From an uncultured Alphaproteobacteria bacterium (GTDB lineage Bacteria; Bacteroidota; Ignavibacteria; Palsa-1295): 64,000 bases of DNA. The position numbers were made by a program, and so were the translations under genes. The stretch is from the NCBI GenBank assembly GCA_964404255.1, contig CAYOJJ010000001.1, forward strand, positions 243,639-307,638. Reading direction: 5' to 3'. The first letter of the stretch is position 1. The number at the start of each line of letters is the position of its first letter. The notes under the pieces are model-generated. The model ran no database searches. It worked only from the letters and a program-made list of their open reading frames with translations, and was not told where the DNA came from. Of this stretch, positions 776 through 43,523 are shown piece after piece.

Positions 776-2679
776 TGGCATCGCAACGCAAAAAACAAGC
801 GCCGGTAAAAAAAGAACCAGCCACCGCCAGATCTTCTTCGATCTATTTTTATATTGGCGCGCTGGCCTCCCTGGTGATGGGATTGTATCATGCTATTAAA
901 CTGAGTTGGGTTTGTGACGATGCCTTCATTACTTTCCGCTATGTAAAAAATTTTGTAGATGGTAATGGCATCGTCTATAATATCGGAGAGCGGGTTGAAG
1001 GCTATACCCATTTTCTGTGGTTGCTTATTCTTTCAGGCTGTCAATGGCTTGGCTTCGAGCAGGTGAATGCCAGTATGGTGGTCGGTATTATCTGCTTTGC
1101 AATTCTTCTGGTTCTCTATATTGCTATTTCTGCAAAAGAAGCCCGCAGCAAGGCATCGCTTACCATCGCTTTACCGCTTGCCGCTTTACTACTATCGTTG
1201 AATTATGATATGAATGTATGGGCAAGCGGAGGACTTGAGACAAGCCTTTATACGCTTCTGCTCTCATCAGCCTTTTATGTCTGGTTCTATTCGAATCTCT
1301 CACGGCCGTTAAAACTCATGGGCGTTGGAAAGCTCCTGACGCTTGCAACATTATCACGGCCCGAGGGTGCGCTTTTTATTATACTTGCCGTAGCGCTGCT
1401 TGCCATTTATGAGTTAAGACGTAAGCACGCTCTCTCTTCGCTTATTAAAGATCTCGGGCTGATGGTGCTGCCAGTAATTGTGATCGGTATTCCATATCTT
1501 CTATGGAAGTATAATTACTATGGCGATCTGCTTCCGAATACCTTTTATACAAAGAGCGCCGGTAGTTCGTATTTCGGTCAGGGGTTCTTTTATATCTGGC
1601 TATTCTTCCGGGTATATTTCACCTGTGGAATTGCGCTACTGGCTCTCGGTGTATATTCTCTGTATCGGCGAAACAAGCATTCGGGAGTAACGACTGGACT
1701 GCCTTCCGGTTCGCCGGTCATTACCGCTATCACTGCTATTACAGTTTATCTTATTTTGTATGTAGCGCAGGTCGGCGGCGATTTCATGTTTGCCCGCTTT
1801 ATCATTCCGATACTGCCGTTGATGTATTACCTCATCGAGCGCGGAATGTGGCAATTGACACAGGAGCGCAAAGCACTCGGCCTTTCACTTTCGGCACTCT
1901 TGCTGCTTGCACTTATCGGCGAAGATCATCTGCGCGAGAATGTGCTTCTTCACGTGGATGCGAAGAGCGGTGAGCAGATGGGTAATTGGGACGATAAAGG
2001 CGGCGGAGAAACGCATGGTATTGCCGACGAGCGGTGGGTCTATATGCGAAAGCGGCTGAATCTCAATGGAGTCGAACGAAGCTCGATGGATGCCTATTCT
2101 GAGATCGGACAATTCTATGAGCCGTTCTTTCGAGGCTTGCCGATCACCATTGAAATCAATGGCGCCCAGAATATGATCGCCTATTACGCCAATTTCCGAA
2201 CAGTGATCAATGAGTACGGACTTACCGATTCTTTCATCGCGCATCAGCCTATCAACCTGCGCGGTAGGATCGGCCATGAAAAGACTGCGCCGGATTCGTA
2301 CCTCGTCAAGCGGGGTGTTCAATTTCAGCTTTTCGGTATTGCACCGAAAAAACCCGATCAGATCTCTTACGACATGGTCGTCTTCGAATTACCGTATGGG
2401 TTATTTCAGGTCGCGCGTATGATCACCTACGACAAGGAAGTAATGGCTGAAGTCCAGAAGCGGTTTAATGCTGCCGGGTTGCATCCGATCATTCCGCATT
2501 ATGAGCGCATTCTGCCAAAATACGTCCGCGATATTATGCCGAAACTGCCGCTCGAACAAGTTGTCAACGATTATGGCGGCTTCAAACAACTATATCTAAA
2601 CCGCTATAAAGACACTGCTTCCGAACATGCTATTCAGGAGTATATAGAGAAAAAACAGAAACAAACACAAGTGAAATAA
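775..2679 (+). CDS. Polytopic membrane protein, GT-C-fold glycosyltransferase-like (DD motif after TM1), with a ~250 aa C-terminal soluble domain
   Basis: 634 aa with at least 10 hydrophobic helices in the N-terminal ~370 aa. 'SWVCDDAFITFRYVKNFVDGNGIVYNIGERVEGYTHFLWLLIL' follows the first TM. 'LSRPEGALF' and 'DLLPNTFYTKSAG' are shared with the paralog at 29355-30905. The C-terminal domain is shared with the upstream partial gene. Confidence 0.7.
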   Translation: MASQRKKQAPVKKEPATARSSSIYFYIGALASLVMGLYHAIKLSWVCDDAFITFRYVKNFVDGNGIVYNIGERVEGYTHFLWLLILSGCQWLGFEQVNASMVVGIICFAILLVLYIAISAKEARSKASLTIALPLAALLLSLNYDMNVWASGGLETSLYTLLLSSAFYVWFYSNLSRPLKLMGVGKLLTLATLSRPEGALFIILAVALLAIYELRRKHALSSLIKDLGLMVLPVIVIGIPYLLWKYNYYGDLLPNTFYTKSAGSSYFGQGFFYIWLFFRVYFTCGIALLALGVYSLYRRNKHSGVTTGLPSGSPVITAITAITVYLILYVAQVGGDFMFARFIIPILPLMYYLIERGMWQLTQERKALGLSLSALLLLALIGEDHLRENVLLHVDAKSGEQMGNWDDKGGGETHGIADERWVYMRKRLNLNGVERSSMDAYSEIGQFYEPFFRGLPITIEINGAQNMIAYYANFRTVINEYGLTDSFIAHQPINLRGRIGHEKTAPDSYLVKRGVQFQLFGIAPKKPDQISYDMVVFELPYGLFQVARMITYDKEVMAEVQKRFNAAGLHPIIPHYERILPKYVRDIMPKLPLEQVVNDYGGFKQLYLNRYKDTASEHAIQEYIEKKQKQTQVK

Positions 2680-2691
2680 CAAGTGGCTATA

Positions 2692-3177
2692 TTAATGATT
2701 CGTTATAGCAAATTTACCGATCGGTAACATCTTCCCAAAATGATTGAGTTGGATATAATATACTCCAAATGCAAAACTTGATACATCGAGTGTCAGCTTT
2801 CCTGTTTCAGGTATTAAAGCCTGAAAGACTTCACGCCCTAGCATATCTAAAATATGAATGGGATGCAGCAGATCATTGGATATGACATGGAGCACTGTAG
2901 AAGCAGGATTAGGAAAAATATAGGTCGCATTAACTATCCTCTCATAGGATTCAACATGAGATAGTTTTATTGAGCCTATAGATGTAGTGGCTGTATCTGT
3001 CTTATAATAAATAACTGTACCTGAATCTTGATTAGATAATACCCCAGAACAGACATATAAGATGGTATCCTCAGCGACGGGATGAGTTACCTGCCAGAGA
3101 AATTGTGCTCTTACTCCCACGTAGCTTAGGAGTAAGAGCGCTACAATTAAAAATAATACTCTACTCTTCACAATCAA
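2692..3177 (-). CDS. Small secreted protein with T9SS C-terminal sorting domain (Por secretion tail)
   Basis: Signal peptide MIVKSRVLFLIVALLLLSYVGVRAQ. C-terminal ~80 aa 'YIFPNPASTVLHVISNDL...YYIQL' resembles type-A T9SS CTDs. The region is low-GC. Confidence 0.7.
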   Translation of the reverse strand: MIVKSRVLFLIVALLLLSYVGVRAQFLWQVTHPVAEDTILYVCSGVLSNQDSGTVIYYKTDTATTSIGSIKLSHVESYERIVNATYIFPNPASTVLHVISNDLLHPIHILDMLGREVFQALIPETGKLTLDVSSFAFGVYYIQLNHFGKMLPIGKFAITNH

Positions 3178-3766
3178 ATGTATAGCATTGATTAAGTATC
3201 AATTGTCCATGAGGTTTTAAGCAATGAGTGTTTGGACCGATTACATCATAGCCACTCCATACCACTATTGGTTGATGAGTTATTTCATCACAATCGTACA
3301 TAGAGCTTTTTTCACAATAAGTACCTTCGCTGCATTGATCATATTCATACTCATTCGGTCCTGTCATAACTAATTTCCAGCAGATGGCTCTGTAGACAGC
3401 ACTGTTTATTCTTGCGTTACACGGATCAATAGCAGCCGGAATACTCGAAAGGAAATTAACCGCGTCTTTCATTAAATCCTGAGGATCTATGGGGTCGCAA
3501 TTGGAGTTTAACGGATCCGGAATAATTTGGAAGATAAAATACTGCCATTCGTTGGTTGGGCCTGTAGTAATCTCACGTGAACAAAAATTTACTATATATC
3601 CACAACCAGTAGTGCCATACATCAGATGTCTTGAAGCTGTGGTCCATGGTACAGAAGTAGGTTCTATATCGGTCGGGCATTGAGCTTCGGCTGTTAAAGA
3701 ATAGCCGAAAGACAACACCATCGAAAATAAAACCACCAAGAAGCTGACACGAAGTAAGATTTTCAT
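3161..3766 (-). CDS. Secreted cysteine-rich protein (~14 Cys), function unknown
   Basis: Signal peptide MKILLRVSFLVVLFSMVLSFGYSLTAEA. Many cysteines in CxxxC-like spacing. Overlaps the downstream T9SS-cargo gene by 17 nt on the same strand. AT-rich coding sequence. Confidence 0.6.
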   Translation of the reverse strand: MKILLRVSFLVVLFSMVLSFGYSLTAEAQCPTDIEPTSVPWTTASRHLMYGTTGCGYIVNFCSREITTGPTNEWQYFIFQIIPDPLNSNCDPIDPQDLMKDAVNFLSSIPAAIDPCNARINSAVYRAICWKLVMTGPNEYEYDQCSEGTYCEKSSMYDCDEITHQPIVVWSGYDVIGPNTHCLKPHGQLILNQCYTFDCEE

Positions 3767-16276: not shown

Positions 16277-17002
16277 TCAGTCTTCTTTGGAAAGGATCGA
16301 TTCCGTTGATTGGTGCTTAAGCATTTTTGCCTCGACGATAAAAATAACGTCTTCGGCAATATTGGTCGCATGGTCAGCCAGACGCTCGACATGGCGAAGC
16401 AGACCCATTGCATGGGCAGCCGGCTCGATCTGAAGCGGATCGCGCTTCATTTCATCGATCAGAATATCGAAAGCCCGGTGGGCAGCTTTATCGATGGCAT
16501 CTTCGCGGTCGAACAGTGTGCGGGCAAGATTTGCATCGTTATTAATAAAGGCATCAAAGGCGAGTCGCGAAGTGCGATGGGCTTCTTCGATCATCGTCTT
16601 TAAGCCGGTACGTTCGAGCATATCGATCTGGCCTTCGAGCGCTTCGGTGCGCTCGGCAATGTTGACGGCAATATCGCCAATGCGCTCGAATTCGGAGTCG
16701 ATCCGCATGGCGGCGATAAGCTTGCGAAGATCGGTTGCTACCGGCTGGGTGAGCGCGAGAATACGCTGGCAAAGGGCATCGACCATCAGATCGTATTCGT
16801 TGACGCGCGTTTCCCGTTTAATGACAAAGCGGGCCGATTCATGATCGCCCGTCAGTACGGCACGCGAAGCAAGTTCGATTTGCTCATCGACAAGCGATCC
16901 CATCCTGATAAGCAGGGCACGAAGCTTATCGAGTTCATCCTCAAAATGGCGGTGGACCCGTGAGGCGGCGGCTTGAAATTCTCCGATACTATCTATACTC
17001 AT
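16277..17002 (-). CDS. phoU: Phosphate signalling complex protein PhoU
   Basis: Two PhoU repeats ('ERIGD.A.NIAE' and 'ERLADHATNIAEDVIF'). Confidence 0.9.
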   Translation of the reverse strand: MSIDSIGEFQAAASRVHRHFEDELDKLRALLIRMGSLVDEQIELASRAVLTGDHESARFVIKRETRVNEYDLMVDALCQRILALTQPVATDLRKLIAAMRIDSEFERIGDIAVNIAERTEALEGQIDMLERTGLKTMIEEAHRTSRLAFDAFINNDANLARTLFDREDAIDKAAHRAFDILIDEMKRDPLQIEPAAHAMGLLRHVERLADHATNIAEDVIFIVEAKMLKHQSTESILSKED

Positions 17003-17022
17003 GGTGGTTTATCTCCTACAGC

Positions 17023-17868
17023 TTATCCGAAACGTCCGGTGATGTAATCTTCGGTTTGTTTTTTTACAGGTTTGGTGAACATATCGCGGGTATCGCCGGC
17101 TTCGATGAGTTCGCCAAGATAGAAAAAGGCGGTGACATCGCTTACACGGGCGGCCTGCTGCATATTATGTGTTACGATAGCGATCGTATAATTATGCTTG
17201 AGTTCGAAAATAAGCTCTTCGATCTTTGCCGTGCTGATCGGGTCGAGAGCGCTGGCCGGCTCATCCATTAATAATACTTCCGGGCTCGTTGCGAGGGCAC
17301 GCGCTATACAAAGACGCTGCTGCTGGCCGCCGGAAAGCCCAAGGGCCGAGTGGTGCAGGCGGTCTTTTACTTCTTCCCACAGTGCCGATTGCTGCAAACT
17401 GCGCTCGACGAGTTCATTAAGCGTCTGCTTATTTTTCTCCCCCAAAATTTTCGGGCCATAGGCAACATTCTCCCAGATCGACTTCGGAAACGGGTTCGAT
17501 TTCTGGAAGACCATCCCGACGCGTTTGCGAAGCTCGACGACATCAAGGCGAGAATCGTAGATATTCACCCCATCGATAACTGCATCGCCGGTGATCTTGC
17601 AGCCGACGATCGTATCGTTCATGCGATTGAGTGTGCGAAGGTATGTCGATTTTCCACATCCCGAAGGGCCAATGAATGCCGTGACGCGGTTCGTTGGGAT
17701 ATCGAGCGTTATATCGCGCAAGGCATGCTTTTCCCCATAAAAGAGGTTAAGGTTTTTTGTCGAGACTTTTACCGAGTGGTACATATTGCTTTGTTCATGG
17801 CTCGTAACCGGTGCCACTTTATCAACGCGCACCTGAGGCGTTTGTTCCTGAGCTACTGGTTCTAACAT
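17023..17868 (-). CDS. pstB: Phosphate ABC transporter ATP-binding protein
   Basis: Walker A 'GPSGCGKST', signature '[15 protein letters not shown]', Walker B '[11 protein letters not shown]'. Confidence 0.95.
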
Positions 17869-17881
17869 CTCTTCCTATCTC

Positions 17882-18844
17882 CTATCCTAATTGTTGCTTG
17901 TTTCTTAAGCGCGACCGTAAGATCACCGCAACCAAATTCAGCGAGAACGTCAATGCCAGAAGCACCAGCGTCGTCGCATATTGCAGTGGTATGGTTTTAT
18001 CGACATTTGCCGACTGAGTAGCCAATACATAAATATGATACCCAAGATGCATAAACTGATGAGAGAGCGACGAGGGTATCTGGGGTAAAAAGAAGGCCGC
18101 TCCGGTAAAGAGGATCGGCGCGACTTCACCGGCGCCGCGGCTGATTGCCAGGATCATGCCGGTAAGAATGCCGGACATCGAGCTTGGCAATACGATCTTG
18201 CGAATCGTCTGCAATCTGGTTGCCCCGAGAGCAAGTGAAGCATCTCGCCACTCTCTCGGTACATTGCGAATTGCTTCTTCGACCGAGACGATCACGACCG
18301 GCATGGTTAGCAAGCCCATCGTCATCGAAGCCCAGAGAATATTCGGCTGCCCCCAGACAAGGGTGCCGGGATTAGCAATCGAATCGATTCCTTTGCCAAC
18401 GAACTGCACAAAGAAACCGAGACCGAATAACCCGAAGACGATCGAAGGGATACTGGCAAGCGTATTGACAGCGAATCTGATAGCCCGGGCAAAGATCGAA
18501 GTTGGCTTTGCATATTCGGAAAGATAGATCGCCGTGATCGTACCGAGCGGTACTGCCATCAGCGACATCAATAAGGTCATTAGTACCGTACCGATGATAG
18601 CCGGATAGATACCACCTTCCATCATACCTTCCTTCGGAGCTTCCGTCAGAAATTCCCAGGTAAGATGATCCCATCCTCCGATAACGACCGTTACGATGAT
18701 CGTAATGACGATCGCAACAATAATAAGTGCAGCAGCACCGGTCAATCCTCCGGAAAGACCGCCAAGCAGCCGTCGCTTCAGCGAGGCGCTTGCCAACAGG
18801 CTGTTATCGGCCCTGGATGCGTTTAATGAGACGCTTACGGACAT
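17882..18844 (-). CDS. pstA: Phosphate ABC transporter permease PstA
   Basis: EAA-type permease motif region 'EEAIRNVPREWRDASLALGATRLQTI.K.VLP'. Confidence 0.9.
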   Translation of the reverse strand: MSVSVSLNASRADNSLLASASLKRRLLGGLSGGLTGAAALIIVAIVITIIVTVVIGGWDHLTWEFLTEAPKEGMMEGGIYPAIIGTVLMTLLMSLMAVPLGTITAIYLSEYAKPTSIFARAIRFAVNTLASIPSIVFGLFGLGFFVQFVGKGIDSIANPGTLVWGQPNILWASMTMGLLTMPVVIVSVEEAIRNVPREWRDASLALGATRLQTIRKIVLPSSMSGILTGMILAISRGAGEVAPILFTGAAFFLPQIPSSLSHQFMHLGYHIYVLATQSANVDKTIPLQYATTLVLLALTFSLNLVAVILRSRLRNKQQLG

Positions 18845-20408
18845 AGAATTCTACCAGTGCATTAAGTAAGAATGTGAAGACGAATAGCAACGCACCAATT
18901 AAGAAAAGAATGGTGTAGTGCTGATCGCCAAAAACTACTTCCGCCATTTCCGCGCCGATCGTTGCAGCGAAGGTGCGGACGGGCTCGAAAGGGTTTGCAC
19001 TTGAAAGCGAAGCATTACCGGTTGCCATCAGGGCGATCATCGTTTCGCCGAACGCACGGCCAAAGCCCAGAATGATCGCAGCAAAGACACCGGGTATCGC
19101 TGATGGTAATACGACACGAAAAGCTGTTTGCCACTTTGTAGCTCCAAGCGCCGTACTGGCATCGCGTAATTGCTGAGGCACTGCCGTTAAGGCATCTTCG
19201 CTGATGGTATAAATGATCGGGATAATGGCAAAGCTCATCGCAATACCACCGACAAAAGCATTGAGCCGGAATTGGTATCCGAAGATACTTTGCAAAACCG
19301 TTGCCATGACGATGAGTGCAAAGAAGCCGACGACAACACTTGGAAGGCCGGCCAGGAGTTCGATGATCGGCTTCAGTGTCTCGCGAGCCCATTTCGGGGC
19401 AAAGGTACTCGTGAAGATCGCAGCAAGAATAGCAAGGGGCGCTCCGAAGAGGATAGAAAGCAATGTTACTTTGAGCGTACCAATAAATAAGGGTACGAAT
19501 CCGAATTTCGGGACGGTAGAAACGGGCTGCCAATTAGTGCCAAAAAATAGCGAGGAGAAATCGGTCGCATGAGCACGTTCAGTGGAATCGCGTTTCTCTT
19601 TTGCAGCAGCGCTATCGGCTTCTGCTTTCGATGCAAGAAGGCTCGCCGAATCTATTGCGGCAACTACCGGCGTGGACGAGACGCTATCCTTGCGAACCAC
19701 TGCCGTCGATTTTTGTCCGGGAATAGTAGCAACACCTCCCTTTTCATCGGCGAACGGATCATAGACTTCCTGCTCCACTTTGCCATCGCCGGTTGTCGTA
19801 AAGACTTTGCCTTTCTTTGGCTCATTCGATGCGGTAGGTTTAGCTTTAGCAGTAGTATCTTTTACCGCGGCAAGCGGAGCTGCTTTCTTTGCCGGAGCTT
19901 TCTTAACTTCTTCTACTGCTTCCTTCTTTACTTCTTTTTTAGGAGCTTCTTCTTTTTTTGCATTGGGGGTATTATCGGCCGCAGGAGTATCCTCGGCAAA
20001 CGGGTCGTACACTTCCTGTTCTACCGTGCCACCATTTTTGGTAAGCTCTTTCTTTTTACCGCTTGCATCTATTTTCACGGTAATATCGGTGCCTTTTATA
20101 CCTTCCTTCGATTTAATAACACCGACGGTTTTCATCGAAGAGAATGCCGTATCTGCTGGAGATACTTTTACAGAAGTATCTGCCTTCGCGGTTGCAGCGA
20201 CGTGGCTTGAATCGGCAACCGTAACCACTTCCGGTTTCGAGGGTCCGAAAAATACCGGAGAAGCTTCGCGAAAGACGAAGACGAAGATCAGTATGATCGC
20301 GGCAAAAGAAACGAACGAAAGGATACGAATCAATGCTTCGATAACCTGTTCGCCGATGCGTTTCTTTTTACCGAGCGTCAGAGGCTTCGGTGGATTGATT
20401 GGTGACAT
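18804..20408 (-). CDS. pstC: Phosphate ABC transporter permease PstC with ~230 aa lysine-rich, repeat-containing insertion after TM1
   Basis: The C-terminal ~290 aa is canonical PstC ('LRDASTALGATKWQTAFRVVLP'). The N-terminal half has one TM, then low-complexity 'KKEEAPKKEVKKEAVEEVKKAPAKKAA' and a duplicated 'VEQEVYDPFA(E/D)' unit. Confidence 0.85.
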   Translation of the reverse strand: MSPINPPKPLTLGKKKRIGEQVIEALIRILSFVSFAAIILIFVFVFREASPVFFGPSKPEVVTVADSSHVAATAKADTSVKVSPADTAFSSMKTVGVIKSKEGIKGTDITVKIDASGKKKELTKNGGTVEQEVYDPFAEDTPAADNTPNAKKEEAPKKEVKKEAVEEVKKAPAKKAAPLAAVKDTTAKAKPTASNEPKKGKVFTTTGDGKVEQEVYDPFADEKGGVATIPGQKSTAVVRKDSVSSTPVVAAIDSASLLASKAEADSAAAKEKRDSTERAHATDFSSLFFGTNWQPVSTVPKFGFVPLFIGTLKVTLLSILFGAPLAILAAIFTSTFAPKWARETLKPIIELLAGLPSVVVGFFALIVMATVLQSIFGYQFRLNAFVGGIAMSFAIIPIIYTISEDALTAVPQQLRDASTALGATKWQTAFRVVLPSAIPGVFAAIILGFGRAFGETMIALMATGNASLSSANPFEPVRTFAATIGAEMAEVVFGDQHYTILFLIGALLFVFTFLLNALVEFYVRKRLIKRIQGR

Positions 20409-35156: not shown

Positions 35157-35819
35157 ATGAAAACAGTTGCAGTCATTCTCTCAGGATGCGGCTACCTCGA
35201 TGGAGCCGAGATCCGCGAATCCGTCGCCACCTTATTGGCGCTTGCCAAACGCAAAGCCACGGTGCATATCTTTGCGCCCGATGCACCACAGACCGTTGTT
35301 ACGAATCACTTAAGTGCGAAAGCTACCCCGGAGACACGTAATATGCTTATCGAAGCAGCCCGCATTGCCCGGGGAAAGATCAGCCCGCTTTCCGAACTTC
35401 CCGATCTCGATTACGATGCCATGATCCTGCCCGGCGGCTTTGGGGTTGCAAAAAACCTTTGTACGTTCGCTAACGATGGCGCTGCCGGCAAGATCCTCTT
35501 TCCCGAACTCGAACGCGATATAAAGGGAATGTATCAGGATGGCAGGCCGATCGGAGCTATTTGCATTTCTCCCGCTCTTATAGCTCTTGCCCTAAAAGGA
35601 GAGAAGCTGGAATTGACCCTTGGCGCCGATAATGGCGCTGCCGACGAAATAAGAAAGCTTGGCCATACCCACATTGTTACTACTCCTTCAGAGATCCATA
35701 TCGACGAAGCCCACAAGATCGTTACGACCCCGGCTTATATGTATGACGATGCCGCGATCGACGAAGTTTTTACCGGTATCGATGCCCTGGTCGAAGCAGT
35801 GCTCTCAATGACGCATTAA
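35157..35819 (+). CDS. elbB: DJ-1/PfpI-family glyoxalase ElbB
   Basis: 'MKTVAVILSGCGYLDGAEIRE' and 'AICISPALIA' match ElbB. The start is at the internal Met of the called ORF. Confidence 0.8.
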   Translation: MKTVAVILSGCGYLDGAEIRESVATLLALAKRKATVHIFAPDAPQTVVTNHLSAKATPETRNMLIEAARIARGKISPLSELPDLDYDAMILPGGFGVAKNLCTFANDGAAGKILFPELERDIKGMYQDGRPIGAICISPALIALALKGEKLELTLGADNGAADEIRKLGHTHIVTTPSEIHIDEAHKIVTTPAYMYDDAAIDEVFTGIDALVEAVLSMTH

Positions 35820-36847
35820 AAATTCTTCGAAGTAAATTCGGGAGCGGCAACTTCGATGGGCGGAAGATCGATAAGATCGAACGCATCGATCTTTTCAAGA
35901 TCGAGTACGCTCGTCCCGTCGTCATCGGTTGAAATAGCCGAGACGAATTTTGCTCCGTAAATAATCTCATTGTGAACGTATGAGCTGCGGGAATAGACCG
36001 TCTGCGAATACGTCTCATCGTACGCTTTAATCTGCACCATCACTTCCGAATCTCCGGCGATGATCTCTTCGCGCGTATAACCGAAGAGCGGGCTGGCTTC
36101 GCTGATTGGATGAACGATCGTCCAACTCGATGCCAGGACACTTACCCGTTGCAATTCCAGCGGCAAGGTATAAAATTTTCTCGATAATCCTCCGCTTTCC
36201 GAAAGCTCATTACGCGAGAGAATCATCAAGGCTTCGAGCTCGATAAGCTGGTTACGCCTGCCATTGGCCAGACGCACCATTACCCCCCGGCCTCCTTTAT
36301 AGGGAGCAACGACGGCTGTCTTACTATAAATAATATTTGCATCCGGATGCGAAAAGCGCCCATATAATAAACCGGTAGCCATCGCAAAAGAAAGCAGGCC
36401 GAGCATTGATTCTATGGCCGCCACCAGGCTCGTTGAAAAACCTACTGGGCTAATACGCCCATAACCGAGGGTCGTCAGTGTTTGAGTACTAAAGAAGAAC
36501 GCTTCGCTGAATTGATCGAAGAAGGTATCGCCGATCATACCATGCAAATGCTCTACCCCGAGCAAATAATAAAGAATGGCAAAAACAAGATTTGTGGCGA
36601 TAAATACAATAAAGAGCATCAGGAAGAACTTGCTCCATCTCATTGTCACGAGCGAGTGAAAAGAGTTATTGAAGAAGTTCTGGCGCTCGCCGATGCGGCG
36701 TACATTAAATGTTCCATCCTGCCGGACCAGGCGTTGGCCACTATAGGTCGGACGCGTACCGAAGCCAAGCTCCGCCGCTTCGGCAGGCTTTTGGCCGTCG
36801 TGTTGTTTTGGGCGCAACAATACTCTATTCTTCGATCGGTAAATCAT
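35816..36847 (-). CDS. Inward-rectifier-type K+ channel (KirBac-like)
   Basis: Selectivity filter 'TTLGYG' between two TMs. The cytoplasmic beta-rich domain 'RLANGRRNQLIE...HPISEASPLFGYT' resembles KirBac1.1 'RAANARQNVIAE...HVIDESSPLFGET'. Confidence 0.85.
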   Translation of the reverse strand: MIYRSKNRVLLRPKQHDGQKPAEAAELGFGTRPTYSGQRLVRQDGTFNVRRIGERQNFFNNSFHSLVTMRWSKFFLMLFIVFIATNLVFAILYYLLGVEHLHGMIGDTFFDQFSEAFFFSTQTLTTLGYGRISPVGFSTSLVAAIESMLGLLSFAMATGLLYGRFSHPDANIIYSKTAVVAPYKGGRGVMVRLANGRRNQLIELEALMILSRNELSESGGLSRKFYTLPLELQRVSVLASSWTIVHPISEASPLFGYTREEIIAGDSEVMVQIKAYDETYSQTVYSRSSYVHNEIIYGAKFVSAISTDDDGTSVLDLEKIDAFDLIDLPPIEVAAPEFTSKNF

Positions 36848-36852
36848 TGTCG

Positions 36853-37263
36853 TTACTTTGCTTCGGTTTCTCCTTCTTTAAAGACAAGCGAGGCGGAATT
36901 GATGCAGTACCGTAAATGTGTGGGCGGCGGCCCGTCATCGAAGACATGGCCAAGATGCGCGCCACAGGTAGCGCAGGTAATTTCTTTACGGTACATTCCG
37001 AAAGATAAATCGACGGATTCTTTAATGGCTACATCCTTCGTCGGCTGGTAAAAACTCGGCCAGCCGCAGCCGGATTCGAATTTTGCTTCCGAGGCAAAAA
37101 GCGGCGTATCGCAGACCACGCAGTGATATATGCCCTTCTTGTGGTTATTCCAATACTCCCCGGTGAAGGCTCGTTCGGTACCTTTTTCCTGGGTCACATG
37201 ATATTGCATCGGCGTCAGGCGCTCTCTGAGCTCCTCATCGCTAAAAATCTTCTTGGTTTCCAT
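36853..37263 (-). CDS. msrB: Peptide-methionine (R)-S-oxide reductase MsrB (cytoplasmic form)
   Basis: 'CGWPSFYQP' and '[24 protein letters not shown]'. No signal peptide. 5 nt upstream of the Kir gene on the same strand. Confidence 0.9.
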
Positions 37264-38922: not shown

Positions 38923-39300
38923 TTATAAACCTGACCAATGGTAAGCAATAATGGTGCCGGTAGTATTGATGGTAAAACTGCGTTCAACCGTTTTTGAATG
39001 TTTCGTCGGACGGGAAATATGAGTCCTTCCCCAGCTATCATACCAGACATATCCCGGAGATGAAGAAGACTGGGTATAACGATAGGTAAGCTCGCGAGAA
39101 CCATCCATTGTTTTGTAGGTCCGGTTGGGAGCGCCCCAACGGGCGACAAGATCGGTCTCGGATTTACCAACCCAGCTTTTCATTGCCGTTTCAATTTCTT
39201 CGCGGCGCGCTGCTTCGGAGGGGCCACAGCTATTTACGGTAATAGCAGCTAATAGAATTAATAAAAATAGACGTACCGATAGAATGGAATTCTTATTCAT
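38923..39300 (-). CDS. Small exported protein/lipoprotein, unknown function
   Basis: Signal peptide with 'TVNSCGP'. 125 aa. Confidence 0.5.
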   Translation of the reverse strand: MNKNSILSVRLFLLILLAAITVNSCGPSEAARREEIETAMKSWVGKSETDLVARWGAPNRTYKTMDGSRELTYRYTQSSSSPGYVWYDSWGRTHISRPTKHSKTVERSFTINTTGTIIAYHWSGL

Positions 39301-39302
39301 AC

Positions 39303-39737
39303 TTACTTTGACGGATATTTCTTTTTCATTCCCTGATAAGCGGTACGTACTATCTGGGAAAGGACTTTCTCATCGACATCGGAAAGTTTCGTAATGTACA
39401 AACACCCTTTGCTCATCTTATGCTTCCCAAGTTTTTCGAGAAGGGTATCGAGCAATCCGCTGCCGGCCATGACATAAAATGTCATCTTCCCTTTGCGCGG
39501 AGAAAACCCAACGAGCGGCGCATCACCTTCACGGCCGCTTTCATAGACATAGTGATAGGATCCAAAACCAATAATAGCAGGTCCCCACATCACCGCCTTT
39601 TCGCCGGTGGCTTCTTTCATAAGTTTCAAAGCCTTCTTGCTATCGGCACGCTGCGCCTCATCTTCCACCGAGTTGATAAAATCCGTTACACTGGCTTTGG
39701 TTGCGACCGTTTGGTTTTCGTTCTTCTTTGCCATCAA
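39303..39737 (-). CDS. DUF1801 (YdhG/YjdN-like) domain protein
   Basis: 144 aa. 'VTDFINSVEDEAQRADSKKALKLMKEATGEKAVMWGPAIIGFG' has the DUF1801 pattern. Confidence 0.55.
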   Translation of the reverse strand: MMAKKNENQTVATKASVTDFINSVEDEAQRADSKKALKLMKEATGEKAVMWGPAIIGFGSYHYVYESGREGDAPLVGFSPRKGKMTFYVMAGSGLLDTLLEKLGKHKMSKGCLYITKLSDVDEKVLSQIVRTAYQGMKKKYPSK

Positions 39738-40255
39738 CGTTCTAAAAAATAGGTTTTGAATTCCTGCAGTTCTTTGAGTTCTTCTTCAATATATTTTTCG
39801 AAGAGTATATCCCCAACTTGGGGTCGCAAGGAAGAGATTCCCGTGTCTATAAGCCGAAATCCCTGTTCGGTCAAGAGCACATTATCATATTGCTTACCAG
39901 ATGAAACCGATCGGGAAATATGACGGTGTACAAAGTTTGAAGTATGTAGCTGCTCTATCTTCTTCTCAAATTCTTTAAATAGTACTTCTCGCTTCTCCAC
40001 TTCATAGCTGCGATAATCAAGCGGATATAATCTCTCCATGACAAGCATCTCCGCATTACTTGCTTCATGCACATCGAGCCGAATAAACTTTACTACCAGA
40101 CCATTAATACTATTAGCGAGCTTCATTTTCTCGGCTTCGGAGCCGATATCGCTTCTGGTATCACCACTAAAAAGCTTCCCACACTCGGTATCCGAGAGGG
40201 CGACAACCACATTGTTCTCGCCCGATGAAAGCCGGTGCTGGTAATACCTCGTCAT
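39734..40255 (-). CDS. Minimal protein-kinase-like (PKL) fold protein
   Basis: 173 aa. 'FVHRHISRS...NVLL' resembles the catalytic-loop pattern HRDxxxxN; 'LIDTG' is DFG-like; 'VVKF' is a candidate ATP-lysine strand. Overlaps the DUF1801 gene by 4 nt. Confidence 0.45.
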   Translation of the reverse strand: MTRYYQHRLSSGENNVVVALSDTECGKLFSGDTRSDIGSEAEKMKLANSINGLVVKFIRLDVHEASNAEMLVMERLYPLDYRSYEVEKREVLFKEFEKKIEQLHTSNFVHRHISRSVSSGKQYDNVLLTEQGFRLIDTGISSLRPQVGDILFEKYIEEELKELQEFKTYFLER

Positions 40256-40259
40256 AGCA

Positions 40260-42452
40260 TTATCTTACAACCTCAAGCAATATCTCCGCAATATCTTTTA
40301 CTTTGACATCGTCGGTGCGTTCTTTGGTTTTTACACCGTCGGTCATCATCGTCATGCAGAAGGGGCAGGCCGAAGCAATTGTATTGGCTTCTGTGGAGAG
40401 GGCTTCCTCCGTACGTTCGATATTGATGCGCTTGCCTTGGGTCTCTTCCATCCACATCTGTCCGCCGCCGGCGCCGCAGCAGAGACCCTTAGATTGGTTA
40501 CGCGGCATTTCGATGATCTCAAGGCCCGGAATCGATTCGAGCGTAGCGCGCGGTGCATCGTAAATATCATTCGAGCGGCCGAGATAGCAGGAATCGTGAT
40601 AGGTCACGCGCTCTTCAAGATCTTTGGTGATCTTTAAGTCGCCTTTTGCAAGTAACTCGGCTACGTATTCGGTGTGGTGAACGACATCGTAGTTACCGCC
40701 GAAATCACCCCACTCATTTTTGATCGCATTGAAGCAGTGCGGGCACGTCGTAACGACCTTCTTAATATTATACCTATTAAGCGTCTCGACGTTCTCTTTA
40801 ATAAGCATTTGTGCGAGATACTCATTGCCCATACGACGAGCCGGGTCGCCAGTGCACTTTTCTTCTGTGCCGAGAATCTTGAAATTAATACCGGCGATCT
40901 GCATTAATTCTGAAAAAGCGCGGGAGATGCTCTTCGCACGAGCATCGAACGAACCGGCACAGCCAACCCAGAAGAGCACGAGGTCTTCTTTCTTCGGAGC
41001 GCCACGTTCTTCATAGGAAGCCATTGTTTCAATACCCAGTCCATCGGCCCAATCGGCGCGCTCGCTCGGGCTGAAAGCCCACGGCGAGAAATTATTTTCC
41101 ATCGAGCTGAAGGCCGGCTGTAATTCCGGCGGGAAGTTCGCTTCCATCATCACGAGGTTACGGCGCAGATCGACAATCTCATCAACGTGCTCAATCGTTA
41201 CCGGGCATTCCTGCATACAAGCCTGGCAGGTGGTACACTGCCAAAGCATTTCAGCCGGAATATAATCGCCGATAAAATTCTTTGCATCGACTTCCTCTGT
41301 ACTCATCTTTGCCTTTGCACCAAGCAAACCACCGGCTTTGGCAGGAGCAACCGTTGCAGCAGGTTCGGCATGGTGGTGGCCATGGGGATCGGCAGGCGTG
41401 GCATTCTGGCCCGGCATATTGACAGACTTGCCAGAGTAGCTTCCGCCTCTCCAGGCGGCCTGCATACCGTCTTCCCAGGAATCGAAACCAAACTTATTTT
41501 CGGCTACCAGGTGCGGAGCCTTATCGAGCATACGCTGATGCGTTGCAATGATGATCCATTTTGGATCAAGAATTTTTCCCGTCGTATTTGCCGGACAGAC
41601 TGAAGTACAACGGCCGCAATGCGTACAAGTATCGCCATCGAAAAGCTGCTTCCAGGTCAGATCTTCTATATCTTTAGCACCATACTGTGTCAGCGTTTCA
41701 TCTTCGAAGTTGATGGGCTTCAGATAATTCTTGCGGCGAAGATCGGAAAAGAACACGTTGGGGATACTCGTCATTACATGCAAGTGCTTCGAGTATGGGA
41801 GGTAATTCATGAAGCCAAGCACACCAAGTATATGCACCCACCAGAATACTTCGCCCATCGTTGCCGTCTTATGACAAGGGCAAAGCATACCGGCTATATA
41901 AGAAGCTACCGGACGAACTTCGCCGTGATACATGCCCCCGGTTGCAATGCGCGAGGCATTCGTCATCATCAATGAAAGGACGATGAGTGTAATAGCATAG
42001 AGCACGACCTGGGCATCCACCTGCTCATGCTTATCGCCTTGCAGGCGCTTTACTTTGCTAACCAGACGACGCCAGAGCGCAACGATCACCGATAAGAAAA
42101 TTAAGACGACAAAGATATCCTGCGAAACCGTAATGACGGGATAAATAGGGCCGAGGAATGAAAGCGAGAAATGGCCAAGGAGACCTTCGCCGATCGATTC
42201 GATAACGGCGGCAAGCAATACTAAAAAGCCCCAAAAGATAAACGCATGAACCGGACCAGCAACCGGGTCGCGAAAGATCTTTGTCTGTCCGATGGCAATG
42301 ACCAGCGTCCGGCGCAAACGCTCGACGAGGTTATCGAAGCGGTTCGTCCATTTGCCGATACGCAGGAAGTCGATCAGCCTGCGGCTATTATAGAAGACGC
42401 CGCCAAAGGCCGCCAAAAGCACAACAAGGAATACGATCGTTTTTACGGTCAT
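40260..42452 (-). CDS. Membrane-anchored Fe-S oxidoreductase, fused HdrE-like (b-type heme TM domain) + HdrD/GlpC-like (2x[4Fe-4S] + 2 CCG domains)
   Basis: N-terminal 5-6 TMs with conserved His. 'CTHCGRCTSVCP' and 'CTTCQACMQECP' are ferredoxin motifs. 'CAGSFD', 'CPHCFNAI', 'CCGAGGG' and 'CPFCMTMM' are CCG cysteine-rich domains. His-rich linker 'PHGHHHAEP'. Confidence 0.75.
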   Translation of the reverse strand: MTVKTIVFLVVLLAAFGGVFYNSRRLIDFLRIGKWTNRFDNLVERLRRTLVIAIGQTKIFRDPVAGPVHAFIFWGFLVLLAAVIESIGEGLLGHFSLSFLGPIYPVITVSQDIFVVLIFLSVIVALWRRLVSKVKRLQGDKHEQVDAQVVLYAITLIVLSLMMTNASRIATGGMYHGEVRPVASYIAGMLCPCHKTATMGEVFWWVHILGVLGFMNYLPYSKHLHVMTSIPNVFFSDLRRKNYLKPINFEDETLTQYGAKDIEDLTWKQLFDGDTCTHCGRCTSVCPANTTGKILDPKWIIIATHQRMLDKAPHLVAENKFGFDSWEDGMQAAWRGGSYSGKSVNMPGQNATPADPHGHHHAEPAATVAPAKAGGLLGAKAKMSTEEVDAKNFIGDYIPAEMLWQCTTCQACMQECPVTIEHVDEIVDLRRNLVMMEANFPPELQPAFSSMENNFSPWAFSPSERADWADGLGIETMASYEERGAPKKEDLVLFWVGCAGSFDARAKSISRAFSELMQIAGINFKILGTEEKCTGDPARRMGNEYLAQMLIKENVETLNRYNIKKVVTTCPHCFNAIKNEWGDFGGNYDVVHHTEYVAELLAKGDLKITKDLEERVTYHDSCYLGRSNDIYDAPRATLESIPGLEIIEMPRNQSKGLCCGAGGGQMWMEETQGKRINIERTEEALSTEANTIASACPFCMTMMTDGVKTKERTDDVKVKDIAEILLEVVR

Positions 42453-42522
42453 ATAAAATAGCTAAACTCGAAAGGGCAAAAATACGCGATTTAGGGCCAG
42501 CGCTTGGTTATCGCGCCTTGGC

Positions 42523-43347: not shown

Positions 43348-43523
43348 TATCCTTGCAATTGAAAGTGCAAACTTACGGATTGCCCACTTACCGAGGTAGT
43401 AAAGCAGGTAAAACTCACCATCACTGCCCGCTAAAGCATACCGCCATGGGCTAAACCTTCTCGACTGCTTCGGCGTTTTCGACGGCTACTTTATACGCAC
43501 CTATTACACTAAGACCAATTTAG

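Follow-up and report, generated by a model that had tools for sequence, protein, structure and literature searches.

The subject of this work is a string of four tightly packed genes on the minus strand of a 64,000-nt stretch of contig CAYOJJ010000001.1 (assembly GCA_964404255.1), hereafter referred to as the window, which belongs to a Kapaibacterium-like genome. The string comprises a gene for a membrane-bound iron–sulfur oxidoreductase (gene 1, most likely etfD), a gene for a protein of only 173 aa with a protein-kinase-like (PKL) fold (gene 2), a DUF1801 gene (gene 3), and a gene for a small lipoprotein-like product (gene 4). Most likely, these genes are functionally unrelated and probably co-transcribed, and they are closely packed owing to a variable slot, specific to the lineage, that follows etfD—taken up by the minimal PKL gene and variable cargo—rather than to a conserved module. 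Functional coupling of etfD with the kinase-like gene is unsupported.

The four-gene string and its transcription

In the direction of transcription, the following features were recorded:

42477–42484, minus strand: candidate Bacteroidetes-type −7 element TATTTTTG, 25 nt ahead of the ATG of etfD
40260–42452, minus strand: gene 1, etfD (most likely assignment), 730 aa
39734–40255, minus strand: gene 2, kinase-like gene, 173 aa
39303–39734, minus strand: gene 3, DUF1801 gene with ATG start, 143 aa (or, from the TTG at 39737, 144 aa)
38923–39300, minus strand: gene 4, small lipoprotein-like gene, 125 aa

The four open reading frames (ORFs) and their junctions, as described in the original prediction, were confirmed by the ORF list and by reading of the sequence. 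The etfD stop codon is separated by 4 nt from the ATG of the kinase-like gene at 40255; the stop codon of the latter runs into the start of the DUF1801 gene, with an overlap of 4 nt for a TTG start at 39737 and of 1 nt (TGATG) for an ATG start at 39734. Another 2 nt lie between the DUF1801 gene and the last gene. It is the 143-aa ATG form of the DUF1801 protein that is held, as an exact match, in a public protein collection. At 90% identity, the products of all four genes are singletons, stemming from one 451-kb NCBI contig.

The last two genes were described in the original prediction as encoding a DUF1801 protein and a small exported protein. Gene 3 matches Pfam PF08818 (DUF1801; E = 2.2e-12) and is YdhG-like, while the product of gene 4 has a hydrophobic N-terminus ending in VNSC, as in a small lipoprotein, and is putatively exported; it gave no match in Pfam, NCBIfam or PADLOC, and its PHROG matches were weak and of unknown function.

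A promoter was sought upstream of position 42452, and the −7-like element listed above is the candidate. Matches to TAnnTTTG are not over-represented across the window overall; of the 38 found, 8 lie 18–36 nt upstream of a start codon on the same strand, where 0.88 would be expected (Poisson p = 4e-6). These eight sites are 42477–42484, 43368–43375 and six others; besides the copy before etfD, one precedes uppP. This placement suggests that the Kapaibacterium-like genome uses Bacteroidetes-style promoters. None of the three genes downstream of etfD has a TAnnTTTG 10–60 nt upstream of it. Generic scans for sigma-70 promoters (9 promoter-like sites versus 7.3 expected from shuffled sequence) and for terminators (6 versus 5.2) stayed near expectation. 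Because the junctions measure 4, −1/−4 and 2 nt and a −7-like element is found only before etfD, the four genes are most simply, and plausibly, read as co-transcribed from the candidate promoter of etfD.

Gene 1, a probable electron-transfer flavoprotein oxidoreductase

Gene 1 encodes an N-terminal heme-b domain with five transmembrane (TM) helices, two cubane [4Fe-4S] motifs and two CCG domains, with Pfam matches to CCG (two copies, E = 5e-36) and to Fer4 (4Fe-4S, two copies). The HdrE/HdrD-like architecture proposed in the original prediction is, hence, sound. Its NarI-like membrane domain found no backing, as Pfam returned no NarI match to the N-terminal domain, which aligns instead to the five-helix heme-b domain of EtfD. 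Along its length, gene 1 aligns with the EtfD of Mycobacterium smegmatis (PDB 9ojn_A; E = 1.5e-137; query residues 34–727 on chain residues 43–743).

The cryo-electron microscopy structure of this 1042-residue enzyme (PMC13083937, citing PDB 9ojn) shows five TM helices, one heme b, two cubane clusters, a noncubane [4Fe-4S] cluster and a linear [3Fe-4S] cluster, which together wire electron-transfer flavoprotein (ETF) to menaquinone. In this enzyme, solvent has no access to the cluster cavity, and ETF rather than a disulfide serves as substrate (PMC13083937). Judged by the heme and cluster ligand list given in the same paper, every heme-b histidine and Fe–S cysteine motif checked is conserved in gene 1: His69 and His225 align with the axial heme-b ligands His78 and His241, CTHCGRCTSVCP and CTTCQACMQECP align with the cubane ligands (clusters D3/D4), and the counterparts of Cys503, 538, 581 and 584, belonging to the linear [3Fe-4S] cluster (D1), are all kept. 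The NCBIfam models for Hdr, TfrB, DsrK and GlpC leave gene 1 far under every cut-off, the best of the HdrB, HdrC and TfrB models being TfrB with 176.8 bits against a cut-off of 385 bits.

In some relatives, etfD homologues stand next to ETF genes. Directly upstream and on the same strand, etfB-etfA is found at L102, L103, L114 and L115 (EtfD 45–51% identical), with the ETF domains at L114 confirmed by Pfam, and etfA alone is found upstream of the homologue at L108 (61% identical). The former four loci thereby show an etfBAD operon arrangement, at about positions 2000–3750 in each.

From sequence, gene 1 is an orthologue of mycobacterial EtfD and most likely a membrane ETF:menaquinone oxidoreductase, a respiratory enzyme of fatty-acid oxidation. 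Given that the mycobacterial EtfD has a solved structure and known biochemistry, and with etfB-etfA upstream in some relatives, gene 1 is better not read as the thiol/disulfide-type oxidoreductase that had been proposed, and probably it is not such an enzyme. Electrons from reduced ETF would enter at the clusters of the CCG domains and pass via the two cubane [4Fe-4S] clusters and the one heme b to menaquinone. This activity would be that of the mycobacterial enzyme, to which the homology and the ligand conservation observed here point. EtfD-type oxidoreductases with the full linear [3Fe-4S] motif reach into the Kapaibacteria, which fits the wide distribution proposed in the 2026 structure paper.

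The His-rich linker PHGHHHAEP, highlighted in the original prediction, is present (window 41361–41387; EtfD residues 356–364) and is not a conserved feature. It aligns to a loop of mycobacterial EtfD, residues 348–373, that is disordered in the map (PMC13083937), and the matching linker in relatives is hypervariable, with 0–3 His; a role as a metal site was rejected on these grounds. The mycobacterial loop is likewise His-rich (HEQKHAHDH), whereas closer relatives hold only 0–3 His.

Gene 2, a minimal protein-kinase-like protein

The 173-aa protein belongs to a family of 2223 homologues, mostly 172–176 aa long and 60–82% identical, which span Kapaibacteria, Ignavibacteria, Saprospiraceae, Chitinophagales and Cytophagales. 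Overall, the family ranges over Bacteroidota, Ignavibacteriota, Chlorobiota and Kapaibacteria, and at least 410 species-representative genomes encode it; at 50% identity, its members fall into 256 clusters. Automatic pipelines label relatives as "serine/threonine protein kinase" or "BUD32 family", and literature searches turned up no study of the family, which is not proof that none exists. Among distant relatives, P0142, P0150 and P0183 were noted, with N-terminal repeats of a zinc-ribbon-like CxxxxHHYxSxKYxxCPxC motif in some; others are 270–325 aa long and carry additional C-terminal sequence.

At the level of sequence, the window protein alone has no Pfam match, reaches 14.9 bits (E = 0.014) against the Bud32 model TIGR03724 with its cut-off of 125 bits, and in the PDB matches two constructs of the protein kinase BRSK2 at E of about 0.3. 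The family as a whole speaks more clearly: sub-threshold Pfam Pkinase matches were obtained for 21 of 28 members (best E = 2e-4, gathering score unreached) and sub-threshold archaeal Bud32 matches for 98 of 107 (best E = 1.6e-6), and the family profile matches 182 PDB sequences, with 60 of 60 among the matches listed being protein kinases. A defence-system or phage origin was also considered; PADLOC and PHROGs returned generic weak kinase matches only.

Structure prediction gave a consistent picture. An AlphaFold2 (AF2) model built from a 107-sequence alignment reached a predicted local distance difference test (pLDDT) score of 90.4 and a predicted template modelling (pTM) score of 0.86; an earlier model from 28 close homologues (pLDDT 49.8) was discarded. 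The elements of the 107-sequence model follow the canonical order β1–3, αC, β4–5, hinge, αE, catalytic loop, β7–8, DFG-equivalent and one long C-terminal helix. A Foldseek search with the model returned more than 1000 matches at E ≤ 0.001, and 50 of 50 among the matches listed are protein kinases. The residues that define the bilobal PKL fold are present in the window protein, namely β3 Lys27, αC Glu40, catalytic-loop Asn125 and the DFG Asp137, and all four are kept without exception across the 84 loci compared. By fold, gene 2 belongs to the PKL superfamily, while it fails the curated thresholds or the defining motifs of Pkinase, Bud32, RIO and ArkI; the kinase-like resemblance first seen by eye has, thus, survived profile and structure tests.

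The catalytic loop of the family follows the consensus GFVHRDIKRPSxxxGxxYDN...LRLIDVGIS, i.e., an HRD loop with about 8 extra residues. In the window copy, HRH stands where HRD or HHD is otherwise found, with His112 at the position of the catalytic Asp, a one-residue deletion in the loop, and IDTG in place of the IDVG of the consensus. The pattern HRH...N...IDTG named in the original prediction is, therefore, real; its spacing had been misjudged, with 12 residues rather than 4 between His112 and Asn125. The HRD Asp is present in 77 of 84 relatives and lost in 7, from scattered lineages; five of these carry His (four HRH and one HQH), and HRS and HHE also occur. The replacements lie at L043, L052, L062, L070, L077, L080 and L082, in addition to window positions 39920–39922, with Lys27, Glu40, Asn125 and Asp137 unchanged throughout. 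A compensated frameshift behind the odd loop was rejected, given the intact ORF and the failure of any alternative frame to restore the consensus.

The altered loop raises the question of whether the window copy is a catalytically dead pseudokinase, which binds nucleotide and transfers no phosphate after loss of the HRD Asp and divergence of the loop. We regard this as unlikely, if worth serious consideration. In its favour, the Asp-to-His exchange comes together with the deletion and with a loop that has only about 5 of 15 residues in common with the closest homologue, P0002, at 82% identity overall; the window copy on its own falls below any Pfam Pkinase match, and loop block 111–120 has the lowest model confidence outside the N-terminus (mean pLDDT 72). 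However, the ORF is undamaged, the complete set of four core residues is retained, and the exchange of Asp for His recurs independently among the 84 loci, which suggests that His is tolerated and is possibly a functional replacement. ArkI, too, lacks the Asp, with HGQ in this place, and is active as a kinase (PMC9095486).

Since the nucleotide- and metal-binding core is retained, the kinase-like protein may bind Mg-ATP. In the model, one long helix is all that follows the DFG-equivalent, so that the protein lacks the activation segment and the αF–αI substrate-binding lobe, and in this it resembles RIO, Bud32 and OspG/NleH. These proteins act as partner-dependent ATPases or kinases. In our preferred model, held with low confidence as to the substrate, the protein would likewise be a partner-dependent ATPase or phosphotransferase, a proposal for activity, substrate and partner alike that we infer from the fold and the retained core. 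Tentatively, and with more doubt than conviction, a broader view can be put forward: the family may comprise uncharacterised, deeply conserved enzymes that are the smallest of the PKL superfamily, combining an ePK (eukaryotic protein kinase)-like HRD core and an extended loop with the lack of a substrate lobe, and serving a housekeeping function with a partner unlike those of RIO, Bud32, OspG and ArkI. The Asp-to-His swap would then mark an alternative chemistry, and a link to EtfD in Kapaibacteria would be a lineage-specific extra.

Gene neighbourhood in relatives

Neighbourhoods were compared from both sides of the etfD/kinase-like junction. The kinase side comprised 80 genome loci with 7-kb flanks, drawn from the at least 410 carrier genomes, and the etfD side comprised 37 metagenome loci, 32 of these with usable downstream sequence. 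The genes downstream of etfD that correspond to those of the string are as follows:

Window: kinase-like gene, DUF1801 gene, lipoprotein gene
L005: kinase-like gene, DUF1801 gene
L006: kinase-like gene, lipoprotein gene
L007: kinase-like gene only
L008: DUF1801 gene, kinase-like gene
L085 and L087: lipoprotein gene
L116: DUF1801 gene

The full four-gene block was found in 0 of the 117 related loci; what recurs is the adjacency of etfD and the kinase-like gene alone, limited to a few closely related Kapaibacterium genomes. The refuting outcome named in the original prediction, a gene order conserved in no relative, nearly applies to the block as a whole and does not apply to the pair. On the kinase side, etfD adjoins the kinase-like gene in 4 of 80 loci, all of them Kapaibacterium metagenome-assembled genomes (MAGs; L005–L008), while at the other 76 all of the window's neighbours are missing, and any given neighbour family reaches at most 5 of 78 loci. 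Even among Kapaibacterium MAGs, L020 and L082 carry the kinase-like gene without adjacency to etfD. Seen from the etfD side, the kinase-like gene lies downstream in 1 of 32 loci, L118; this is also the only one to have it among the 7 loci with downstream sequence and an EtfD at least 73% identical to that of the window. At L118 (EtfD 83% identical), two ORFs identified by eye as HicA-like (83 aa) and HicB-like (75 aa) lie at positions 620–1086, between etfD and the kinase-like gene; therefore, the junction tolerates insertions. Locus L120, where DUF1801 comes after etfD, was given no weight, as its palindromic structure suggests an artefact of assembly.

Genes 3 and 4 are variable cargo. The DUF1801 gene comes after the kinase-like gene in L005, separates that gene from etfD in L008, and is absent from L006 and L007; homologues of gene 4 follow the kinase-like gene in L006 and lie directly after etfD in L085 and L087.

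Around these changing contents, a stable backbone of uppP-etfD ... msrB-kir was recognised, with the variable slot in between. Upstream of etfD in the window lies uppP and, farther away on the opposite strand, yidC and mnmE; downstream of the four genes are a gene for a BNR/type IX secretion system (T9SS) protein, msrB, and a Kir-type K+ channel gene. The channel gene, which comes after msrB, is of the eukaryote-type inward-rectifier (Kir/IRK) kind, and the msrB-kir pair (window 35816–37263) is retained in L006, L007, L008, L085 and L087. Elsewhere in the window, a phosphate-transport operon with two permease genes, an ABC ATPase gene and phoU is located on the minus strand at 16277–20408.

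Across its range, the kinase-like gene occurs in diverse surroundings, none of which is general. It was observed inside a type I CRISPR-Cas locus of Ilyomonas limi, directly after aspS in a Chitinophagaceae MAG, and, in five Ignavibacteria loci, between hutI-like and ftcD-like ORFs, both identified by eye; the loci noted for these contexts are L019/L003 (Ilyomonas limi) and L024/L001.

These neighbourhoods also bear on the possibility that the kinase-like protein of Kapaibacteria serves EtfD as a dedicated regulator or as an accessory subunit—acting, e.g., by phosphorylation or by ATP sensing that gates electrons from β-oxidation—and that the operon is a real functional module, as the original prediction suggested. 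The gap between the two genes is 4 nt in the window and stays below some 70 nt in L005, L006 and L007, which is what such a module would show, as is the lack of a promoter-like −7 element before the kinase-like gene. Against this stand the presence of the gene in at least 410 genomes, with 76 of the 80 sampled having no etfD within 7 kb; its occurrence in only 1 of the 7 loci with closely similar EtfD (at least 73% identical), where a toxin–antitoxin-like pair intervenes; and the separation of etfD from the kinase-like gene by DUF1801 in L008. We consider a dedicated EtfD regulator very improbable.

Several observations weigh against the preferred account of the string as a whole. The etfD/kinase-like pair recurs, tightly spaced, in four Kapaibacterium MAGs, and a lineage-specific functional link between the two genes may exist. 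The window ORFs that were scanned, covering only part of the window, yielded no ETF gene, and no convincing terminator closes the string, the hairpin after the last gene being no better than shuffled sequence (z = 0.03). On balance, a lineage-specific slot downstream of etfD remains the reading that we prefer. The "unprecedented coupling" announced in the original prediction is, in this light, a lineage-specific juxtaposition, in which gene 1 comes from a known and structurally solved family. Being a lineage-specific arrangement, the operon itself is of little importance, and the residual novelty is the unnamed minimal kinase-like family: a kinase-fold family of ~173 aa with no Pfam model, about 60% identical across Kapaibacteria, Ignavibacteria and several Bacteroidota orders, and an easy target for study of the minimal protein-kinase catalytic core.

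Comparison with known systems

Gene 1 is homologous to EtfD (Rv0338c/M. smegmatis, PDB 9ojn) along the whole ordered part of the latter, with the five-TM heme-b domain, both His residues, the cubane Cys motifs, the two CCG domains and the four Cys of the linear site in common. The mycobacterial protein continues into a disordered C-terminal region of roughly 30 kDa, which gene 1 does not have (730 versus 1042 aa). Related forms of EtfD are FadF of Bacillus subtilis, DgcB of Pseudomonas aeruginosa and the syntrophic EMO. With HdrDE/HdrBC, gene 1 shares equal domain architecture and CCG-type noncubane cluster motifs; its matches to HdrB and HdrC chains are weak (E about 2e-4).

Among the minimal kinases, Bud32 is the closest curated sequence model to the gene 2 family, and both are of similar size with a minimal C-lobe. 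That the 173-aa protein is a bacterial Bud32 orthologue, i.e., the KEOPS-type ATPase of tRNA t6A synthesis, as some automatic annotations say, is nonetheless highly improbable, with gene 2 more than 100 bits below the model cut-off and no Kae1/TsaD partner as a recurrent neighbour in 78 loci, where TsaD was not specifically searched for. To the RIO kinases (Rio1/Rio2), the resemblance is solely structural: no Pfam RIO1 match was obtained at E ≤ 1, the Rio1 NCBIfam model gives a weak match in only 17 of 107 family members, a length of 173 aa is too short for the RIO-specific N-terminal extension, and the family loop is HRD-like with the insertion of about 8 residues.

The OspG/NleH effector kinases and the tRNA 2′-kinase ArkI are minimal kinases of 160–173 aa, none of which matches gene 2 at the sequence level. 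The gene 2 family is chromosomal and widespread, and it is not an effector. ArkI (COG2112/AQ578) is characterised by the motifs HGQ, DFE and a C-terminal YKR, and by a positive tRNA-binding patch (PMC9095486). These motifs are absent from the gene 2 family, in which HRD or HHD, DVG and a terminal FLxR are found instead. With a median isoelectric point of 5.3, which offers no clue to the substrate, the family is also acidic as opposed to the positive patch of ArkI, and an ArkI-like role as an RNA kinase is, on both counts, unlikely for this compact and broadly distributed kinase-like family.

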